Assembly: GCA_951804945.1 (NCBI GenBank) | Contig: OX638164.1 | Location: 7,998,001-8,062,000, forward strand | DNA: 64,000 bases | Reading direction: 5' to 3' | Origin: Podarcis cretensis | Lineage: Eukaryota | Part shown: positions 49,610 to 51,982 of the stretch, in pieces | How positions within the stretch are numbered: position 1 is the stretch's first letter | Layout: the number at the start of each line of letters is the position of its first letter | The notes under the pieces: generated by a model | Told to the model about the DNA's origin: nothing | Seen by the model: only the letters and a program-made list of their open reading frames with translations | Databases searched by the model: none | Translations under genes and position numbers: made by a program

Positions 49610-49877
49610 TAGTTAATCCTTTCAGCCACAATGATGTAACATTACACAACTTTACTATCCGAGTAGCTGAACTGCTTCACAACCCCACACTCATTCATCC
49701 AGGGCACTGCTTCTTTTTAACCACAGCATCTGAGCAAAGGTCACAGATCAAGTTATTTTAACTTCACAGCTTGTCAAAGCAATTAAGCCATTCAGGAGGT
49801 TATGCCTCTATGTGTAAATTGAAACCTGACTGGAATGAGATGGTCTGTGCCAACGCTTACCTGCCTAACTCACTTAC

Positions 49878-49884
49878 CTGAGGT
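49878..49884 (-). other. Candidate 7-nt microexon (alternative donor extends it to 24 nt, 49861-49884) in MSI2 intron 6
   Basis: Minus strand: tttgtttcttttgctttctctccatatatttcAG|ACCTCAG|GTAAGTgagttaggcAG|GTAAGC. There is a 61-nt AG-free pyrimidine-rich stretch upstream and two consensus donors. Confidence 0.5.
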
Positions 49885-51982
49885 CTGAAATATATGGAGA
49901 GAAAGCAAAAGAAACAAAGGGCAAAGTGACCAAGAAGCAAAAGGCGCCTTAGTGGCAGAGACCAAGGGCCACACTGCTCTGTGGACGATCTTCCATTGGT
50001 GGGCAGGGCCAAAGGCAACCGCAAACAGAGCAGTAGATGTGGCATTAACTTTCTGCAGTATGTTACATTTCAGCAATGCAAAGGCAGAGGTTTCTAAACA
50101 CACACATTTCCCCATTCCCTATCCAGGCAAGCAAGACGTATTATCACAGTTCAATGATGCATTCCAGCTTTGCAAAACCACTCAAAGATGGGTCAGAGCA
50201 AGAGCAGTTTGAAGGTCCAGTATGTAGACTCAAAGCATGTCTACAGCCTACTAACTTATACACTACTGCCCACTGAAGGTATACATCTCAGCTGGGATCC
50301 AAATAACGGCACTAGTTCTGGACACACAGAGGGGTATTCAGATCTGTTTCTCAAACAGCGAGCCCCCAGTGTCACACAGTAAGCTGTCAGAAAGCTAAGG
50401 GGAGCACCTCCGTGTTAAGGGATTGGAGAAAGGTCCAATCATCAATCTTCAAAGATTGACAAGCTGTCCACTTGCTTGGGGCAGGGTGGAGGGAGAGAAA
50501 TTGTTCCCTTGACTTCACTTTATAATATTGAAGGAACACAAGATACAATAATTAAGCCCTGATCTCGGTCGATTGTTCACAATGATAATTCCACCTTTGT
50601 AATGCAAGCTTCAAATAAACCCCCTTTGTTCTGTCTTAGAACGCAGATTCTAGTATCATTCAAGTATATTAACTGGAGCCTATTACTGTCACATAGAAAT
50701 GCTCCCTGAGCCATAGCAAAGAACTCCCCAGACAAAACTTTATGTCATGTTAATCCAAGCTTTAATAACTAGGAGAATATATAACTGTATTCTAATTGCG
50801 CTTTGTGCTTCTGCATACAAAAACCCCCTCAAAGACATAAAAAATGACATACACAGCTTTCTTCAAACAGAGCAGTTTAACACCCCAAATTTGGGTGTTT
50901 AGGAGTTTTCTTTTCCCCCTCCTCAAAAGGGCAGTTTAAAACAGACTAGCATTAAAAAGGTGGTTGACAGTTAACGCCAAATAAAAAGGATCAGGCAGAC
51001 ACTAAGAGGGAAAAGGGGAGGGGAGGGACTGGGCACAGCTGTGATTTTGGCAACAGAAATCAACGCCCTCTAAGAGAGCACTTAAACAGGAATCATCAGT
51101 ATTATGGAAATCTTTCATATTTAATTCTAGAGTGCCAGCTATAAAACCTTACAGGATAAAAGGACCATAACAAGACAGACCATTTTGTTAACTTGATGCT
51201 TTGGAAAATAAAGAGCCTGGGCAATTAACATACTGTATTTCCATATGAATGGCACAAGGCCCAGAGAGTGGTAACAAAGGCCTTCTTGGGTCATACTTCC
51301 CTTATCCTTAAAATGGGTTGGGATTTAAAATCTCTTTGCTATTGATCTCCCTTAAGTCAAGAGTATGGTACACACCTAATTTCCAGTGGCAGCGTTCCAC
51401 AGAACTGGGAAGGACTGGGTTCGCGAAGCTTGCTGAGTAACCTGGGACAGTTCTAAATAATCTCTCAAAACTAATGCACATCATAGGGTTATAAAGGGAG
51501 AGGGGCCTCTGTATGCACCCCAAATGCCTTGGAGGAAGGATGGGACATATATGAGGGTGAAGGACTCATCTGTTTTGAGAACTGTTGGCATCCATCTGTC
51601 TTGAGAGACAATGAAATGTGGCTGCAGGGACTGGTAACTCCTAACTGCTGCCTCCTGTGTTGTTTTTGCTGCATTAGAAGCACCCAAGTGACATCTCCGG
51701 GGTGCAAGCCTGGGCAGTGTGTATGGAGGTCCTGGGCTGCCCAAACAACAATACCACCCTCTCGGCTTTGCTGATGTGGTCCAACTGAAAGGAAAGCAGT
51801 ATGTGTGGCACCAGCTTGGCTGCAGGAGTTGCCAGAAAGAGGCATACAATACACCATCCAACCATCTTAGGTACTCTGCTCTGGATTTGTGTAGGGTTTA
51901 CTCCTTAGTTGGGGGTGTGAAAGTAGCAGCCTTATACACAGTCAGACCATCTCCTAGTAAAGTTTGAGTTGACAGTGGCAGT

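Follow-up and report, generated by a model that had tools for sequence, protein, structure and literature searches.

Intron 6 of MSI2 carries a consensus acceptor and a full-consensus donor that are separated by 7 nt. The pair is, on balance, probably a strong pseudo-exon that is normally skipped. The splice signals, the reading phase, and the premature stops that inclusion would cause were all read directly in the DNA, and the RNA reads seen pass straight from exon 6 into exon 7. Pseudo-exons, or cryptic exons, are a general class in long vertebrate introns. Like them, the candidate has a consensus acceptor and donor, shifts the frame, and is skipped in the mRNA seen. Its signals are stronger than those of most, and both its donors and its acceptors come as nested pairs.

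In the mechanism that we favor, exon 6 would join exon 7 directly and the acceptor-donor pair would normally be passed over. The rare transcript that included it would be frameshifted and then cleared by nonsense-mediated decay (NMD). The site would have arisen by drift, its second donor perhaps through a short duplication. The 7-nt exon would be too short for definition without a dedicated activator, and presumably no regulator uses the site. All of the readings considered here are known kinds of element, and the probabilities given to them are our judgement from the counts.

Host gene and structure of the site

The window, a stretch of 64,000 nt, corresponds to G000:C15:7998001-8062000, with MSI2 on the minus strand. 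No coding exon of MSI2 other than exon 7 (24073-24025, minus strand; 49 nt) was found in the window. Exons 2-6 lie upstream of the window and exons 8 onward lie downstream, where exons 8-11 and two later exons were mapped. The gene is presumably MSI2, a name that rests partly on characteristic peptide motifs, together with an RRM match of exon 6 that falls short of the Pfam cut-off and with exons of 41, 85, 42, and 93 nt, the lengths given in human or mouse MSI2 rows. A paralogue on C16 was taken as MSI1. Intron 6 of MSI2 is 92,960 nt long; 67 kb of it separate the candidate from exon 6, and 26 kb separate it from exon 7. Exons 2-6 total 343 nt, which with exon 1 (62 nt, read by eye) makes 405 nt of coding sequence, so that exon 7 begins in phase 0. 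Exon 6 ends in AAG. Immediately 5' of exon 2, an ATG-started open frame (G000:C15, about 8235420-8235361) continues into that exon without a stop and could be an alternative start.

Re-reading of the sequence confirmed all sequence details of the initial annotation, namely the tract, the acceptor, the 7-nt exon, and both donors, all on the minus strand. The 61-nt AG-free tract (49887-49947), 85% pyrimidine across its final 39 nt, is closed by a branch-point-like CACTAAG (49948-49954), newly noted here, whose putative branch A at 49949 is 65 nt before the exon. A weaker branch-like GGTCAC is 43 nt before the 7-nt exon. TGC triplets start within the tract at 49939, 49923, and 49907 (minus strand), the nearest occupying -23 to -21. 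The first acceptor CAG (49885-49887) is followed by the frameshifting 7-nt exon (49878-49884), whose final three bases are the second CAG. Donor 1, CAG/GTAAGT (49872-49877), has the full consensus and is also an AG/GT junction of the recursive type; it is one of two CAGGTAAGT in the 388 kb of sense strand, the MSI2 gene span used for the scans, and the other is the donor of exon 3. Because the 7-nt exon ends in CAG, donor 1 forms a YAG/GT junction, and a third form, of 17 nt, is possible.

Donor 2, CAG/GTAAGC (49855-49860), is 17 nt past donor 1. The 17-nt segment between the two donors (49861-49877) would serve as the extension to a 24-nt form or as an RS-type exon. It contains the TGA that ends the 24-nt form in frame and the single GUUAG, which begins 8 nt past donor 1. 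The regions of the two donors match in 15 of 19 columns, with a tail similarity that 3% of random 12-mers reach, and the duplication is absent from the TRF output. Donor 2 may have arisen as a 17-nt tandem copy of donor 1 that has since decayed, and it was not counted as independent evidence.

With exon lengths of 7 and 24 nt between an AG and a strong donor, the candidate falls within the 3-27-nt range of SRRM3/4 neural microexons, and its 61-nt AG-free tract and predicted branch at -65 likewise agree with that class. The YAG/GT junction, the downstream donor, and the long intron also agree with the structure of a recursive site with an RS-exon. In the predicted folding, 56% of the tract is unpaired, compared with 40% across a 271-nt region; this value has no control and was not weighed as evidence.

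The host gene, the phase of exon 7, and the premature stops also hold as initially annotated. Beyond codon 135, translation would run for 10 (TSGRGCHAYV*), 4 (TSGK*), and 6 (VSELGR*) further residues in the 7-, 24-, and 17-nt forms, respectively, before stopping inside RRM2; in the 7-nt form, the stop is at 24050-24048, in exon 7. Every stop falls within the candidate exon or exon 7 and precedes a later junction by more than 50-55 nt. A stop at such a distance leads to NMD. Because at least six exons lie downstream, all three forms would be NMD targets by this rule, instead of the source of an RRM1-only isoform, as had been suggested.

A transposon origin of the candidate was ruled out, the site being single-copy. 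A multi-copy, internally inverted (MITE-like) repeat of about 440 nt (49175-49617), with a 17-nt tandem unit inside, begins about 240 nt downstream of donor 2 and recurs in at least about 40 other places at 79-90% identity. The sole Rfam match is tRNA-like and partial (60197-60254, minus strand, 39 bits) and is possibly the head of a SINE.

Rarity of the site and its putative regulatory motifs

The scans used loose, mid, and strict rules for AG-free length, pyrimidine share, and donor strength, with thresholds set after the site had been seen. In the 388 kb of MSI2 sense strand, no site but the candidate reaches the mid or strict class, and on the antisense strand none does. The loose class has three sense and three antisense sites in the gene. 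Control strands (1.34 Mb) contain 10 loose, 3 mid, and 1 strict sites, and 30 Mb of order-6 Markov sequence contains 135, 58, and 4, respectively, none as good as the candidate. The control rates are about 2 per Mb for the mid class and 0.13-0.75 per Mb for the strict class, with 0.8 mid and 0.05-0.3 strict sites expected per gene of MSI2 size. Thus, a gene of this size is expected to hold one mid-class match, and 5-30% of such genes are expected to hold a strict one. No comparable site is present in intron 6 (18.9 kb) of the paralogue MSI1.

A looser genome-wide pattern for exons of 3-9 nt gave 32 matches, the candidate included, versus 23 in the reversed control (p 0.28). Lengths divisible by 3 account for 9 of the 32 matches, compared with a chance expectation of 3/7; without an in-frame excess, the motif class looks mostly accidental. 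The strict rule is passed by 4 of the 30 matches examined, the candidate among them (2 of the 32 had no locus), and the candidate alone among these 30 has a second donor. In a coding-neighbor check of 10 kb on either side of five peers, one strict peer (of three) comes about 60 nt after the stop codon of what looks like a coding last exon, one peer of the mid class (of four) is antisense to a MADD exon, and no clear coding exon was found within 10 kb for three of the five. The strict-class peers include C2:56646083 (8 nt, AG-free 79) and C7:66426621 (6 nt, AG-free 77), neither with a host gene found within 10 kb. The C7 site has an in-frame length and 6 TAG downstream.

The initial annotation had read three UGC motifs in the tract as a signature of SRRM3/SRRM4 regulation. 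At least three TGC are present in 6 of 38 strict tracts on the sense strand, in 5 of 27 on the antisense strand, and in 14 of 82 control tracts (17%). The UGC count of the candidate is therefore ordinary and does not set its tract apart from the controls. According to the part of bioRxiv 2024.09.17.613571 that was available, 74-79% of SRRM-dependent microexons have UGC, which is no strict requirement, and donor strength tracks the response to SRRM4.

The argument for Musashi binding at downstream UAG does no better. The 200 nt past donor 1 contain 2 TAG, compared with a gene mean of 2.4 and with 9 and 8 at two in-gene comparators described below, so that the intron downstream of the candidate is at background, unlike the UAG-rich downstream intron of a Musashi-activated photoreceptor exon. 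At least 2 TAG are present in 68% of 200-nt windows of the gene, and 0.15% of them reach 9. Musashi autoregulation through the intron-6 site is unlikely. What stands of the earlier interpretation is the layout, with its long AG-free tract, distant branch point, and strong donor, which resembles that of a neural microexon; splicing of the exon is not supported by the reads and tables described below, and the UGC and UAG counts do not exceed the controls.

RNA junctions, event tables, and alternative readings

Exon 6 was examined in eight runs, three of them contig sets and the other five raw-read runs that belong to two studies. Junction reads were present in four of the raw runs (X13, 7; X15, 4; X11, 6; X16, 7), and all 24 loose ends listed at the exon-6 donor continue straight into exon 7. 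Among the joints listed (groups of at least three reads; X11 held intronic reads), there is no other donor-side joint from exon 6. Runs X14, X4, and X20 have no record at exon 6, and X18 has an intronic contig only. The RNA is from a related organism and a hidden tissue, at low depth, with 6-26% of each raw run read and a consensus agreement of 0.84 for X15. Relative to G000, the runs show a single-base difference in exon 7 and a 5-nt insertion in the intron. The insertion is right after the exon-6 donor hexamer in four intronic X11 reads and is probably an allele or species difference. Splicing of the microexon, as initially proposed, is thus not supported by this RNA of hidden tissue from a related organism (0 of 24 listed junction reads). 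This count rules out only inclusion above about 12%, and NMD would further deplete the product. No RNA set was listed for 49700-50200; words from this stretch were found at 4-14% in four RNA-guess contig sets, shares to which we gave no weight.

No report of an MSI2 intron-6 microexon was found among the papers listed by the literature searches. None of 12 MSI2 event rows (one a repeat) in the human and mouse supplements of four papers is in intron 6 (2 rows in PMC9509328 file 1, 2 in PMC9303857, 1 in PMC4317164, and 7 in PMC13078869). There is no intron-6 row in the human brain, mouse retina, or AS-NMD tables, or, in PMC9509328 file 1, among exons reduced in the Msi1/Msi2 knockout. These tables are lists of regulated events instead of full catalogues, were covered for 12 of 18 files (PMC9303857), 11 of 12 (PMC9509328), and 4 of 5 (PMC4317164), and, being mammalian, are uninformative on a reptile-restricted exon. 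Tables of the same four papers do carry the MSI2 intron-10 microexon and intron-4 exon. The MicroExonator supplements gave 0 matches in an MSI2-related look-up, which had no positive control and is uninformative.

A pseudo-exon is the most likely reading in view of the 24 direct joins among 24 reads, the motif class without excess, the background levels of UGC and UAG, the 0 of 12 table rows, and the absence of a counterpart in MSI1. It is opposed by the lack of any other mid- or strict-class site in MSI2, by the absence of an equal in 30 Mb of Markov sequence, by the place of the candidate in the top 4 of the 30 genome-wide matches examined, where it alone has a second donor, by the neural-type layout, and by the weakness of the RNA test. 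Although we find it doubtful, a poison microexon of the SRRM3/4 type stays credible, given a layout that is rare in this gene and an RNA test that could not be aimed at neural tissue. On this reading, the first acceptor would be switched on by SRRM3/4 in neurons and kept silent by PTBP1 in other cells, and MSI2 mRNA with the 7- or 24-nt insert would be routed to NMD during progenitor differentiation, as in BAK1 and REST. The available part of PMC12697546 describes the BAK1 poison microexon as neuron-included and highly conserved, and that of PMC11701043 describes a 16-nt REST exon that is driven by SRRM4 and included in neurons. Like these exons, the candidate is very short and frameshifting, leads to a premature stop, belongs to a progenitor-type gene, and has UGC upstream; their neuronal inclusion is demonstrated, whereas the candidate is known from sequence alone. 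Neural microexons are reported to have a distant branch point and a long pyrimidine tract, with median branch-to-exon distances of 45-47 nt versus 34 nt in comparison exons (PMC12871342, available part), and the branch-like motif at 65 nt, the full-consensus donor, and the stops far upstream of later junctions in both forms all argue for such an exon. The lack of inclusion among the 24 listed reads, the unenriched UGC count, the lack of an intron-6 row in the brain, retina, and AS-NMD tables, and the motif class without in-frame excess argue against it.

Upstream AGs are favored as acceptors under the first-AG scanning rule. This weighs on the quite improbable reading in which exon 6 is spliced to the second CAG and rebuilds an AAG/GTAAGT donor, since the competing CAG 7 nt upstream should win. 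The 17-nt RS-exon would then normally be removed, the 93-kb intron would be cut as 67 + 26 kb, and an exon6-GTAAGTGAG junction would be expected. No exon6-RS joint is among those listed, including in X11 with its intronic reads, and no paper was found that pairs recursive splicing with MSI2. Recursive sites with RS-exons and dual-specificity sites are described in the available parts of PMC5126111 and PMC10156609. The candidate resembles them in its YAG/GT in a long intron, its second donor downstream, and its stop on inclusion (VSELGR*), which fit the RS-exon model of PMC5126111; exon 6 ends in AAG as this reading needs, and the direct exon 6-7 mRNA is also predicted by the model. It differs from them in the competing upstream CAG, and no intermediate was seen. 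A poison exon that is autoregulated by Musashi or used in photoreceptors, with MSI bound at the downstream GUUAG and promoting inclusion, is very improbable. The motif begins 8 nt past donor 1, and mouse photoreceptors have an MSI1/MSI2 feedback loop (PMC13175383, available part); the TAG count is matched or exceeded by 68% of gene windows, the GUUAG sits within the 24-nt form, the likely orthologues of retina exons carry 9 and 8 TAG, and no intron-6 row is among the knockout-reduced exons. Scarcely probable at all is a cryptic last exon that would yield a stable RRM1-only protein of 139 aa, for which an AATAAA is found at 49547; this AATAAA is within the multi-copy repeat beside an A-run, two strong donors are at the start of the exon, and no such joint is among those listed at the exon-6 donor.

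Other MSI2 exon candidates and possible Musashi feedback

A 24-nt in-frame exon candidate in intron 10 (G000:C15:7885806-7885783, minus strand), 2,400 nt before exon 11, has 9 TAG in the 200 nt downstream. It is likely the counterpart of the known 24-nt MSI2 retina microexon (mouse MmuEX0029826, human chr17:57650649-57650673; available parts of PMC9509328, PMC9303857, PMC4317164, and PMC13078869) and, if orthologous, extends that microexon beyond mammals. The intron-6 candidate shares with this microexon the gene and, in its long form, the length of 24 nt. In contrast, the intron-10 microexon is in another intron, is in frame, and depends on Musashi, its PSI falling from about 0.85 to 0.38 in the knockout.

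Similarly, a 77/72-nt exon candidate with tandem acceptors is found in intron 4 (G000:C15:8231948(8231943)-8231872, minus strand), 2,300 nt before exon 5. Both forms would lead to premature stops, and the next 200 nt contain 8 TAG. The event tables hold an MSI2 intron-4 exon of 78 nt in human (NMD_in) and of 83 nt in mouse (MmuEX0029825, retina PSI 12), and the 5-nt gap between the 77- and 72-nt forms equals that between the mouse and human lengths. The 77/72-nt exon is likely the counterpart of this exon; for both known exons, the match is by position and length, from which orthology is inferred. Like the intron-6 candidate, the intron-4 exon is a poison-type exon in MSI2, and it is already catalogued.

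In mouse photoreceptors, a feedback loop of unnamed mechanism keeps the level of MSI1/MSI2 protein, according to the available part of PMC13175383. In view of the UAG-rich intron that follows it here and of its enrichment in mouse retina, the intron-4 exon can be proposed as a testable candidate for this loop. Musashi feedback is more likely to act via the intron-4 poison exon than via the intron-6 site, and this by-product of the analysis may matter more than the intron-6 candidate.

It is unlikely, though worth stating, that an uncatalogued, neuron-activated 7/24-nt poison microexon turns MSI2 off in the neurons of reptiles, possibly of all amniotes, on a dual-specificity site through which the 93-kb intron can also be removed recursively. 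An NMD exon of 7 nt is easily missed. If the candidate is spliced, a stem-cell and cancer regulator would be added to the few genes that a frameshifting microexon shuts off in neurons. If the whole proposal is true, MSI2 would have two separate NMD switches, an SRRM-driven one in intron 6 and a Musashi-driven one in intron 4.
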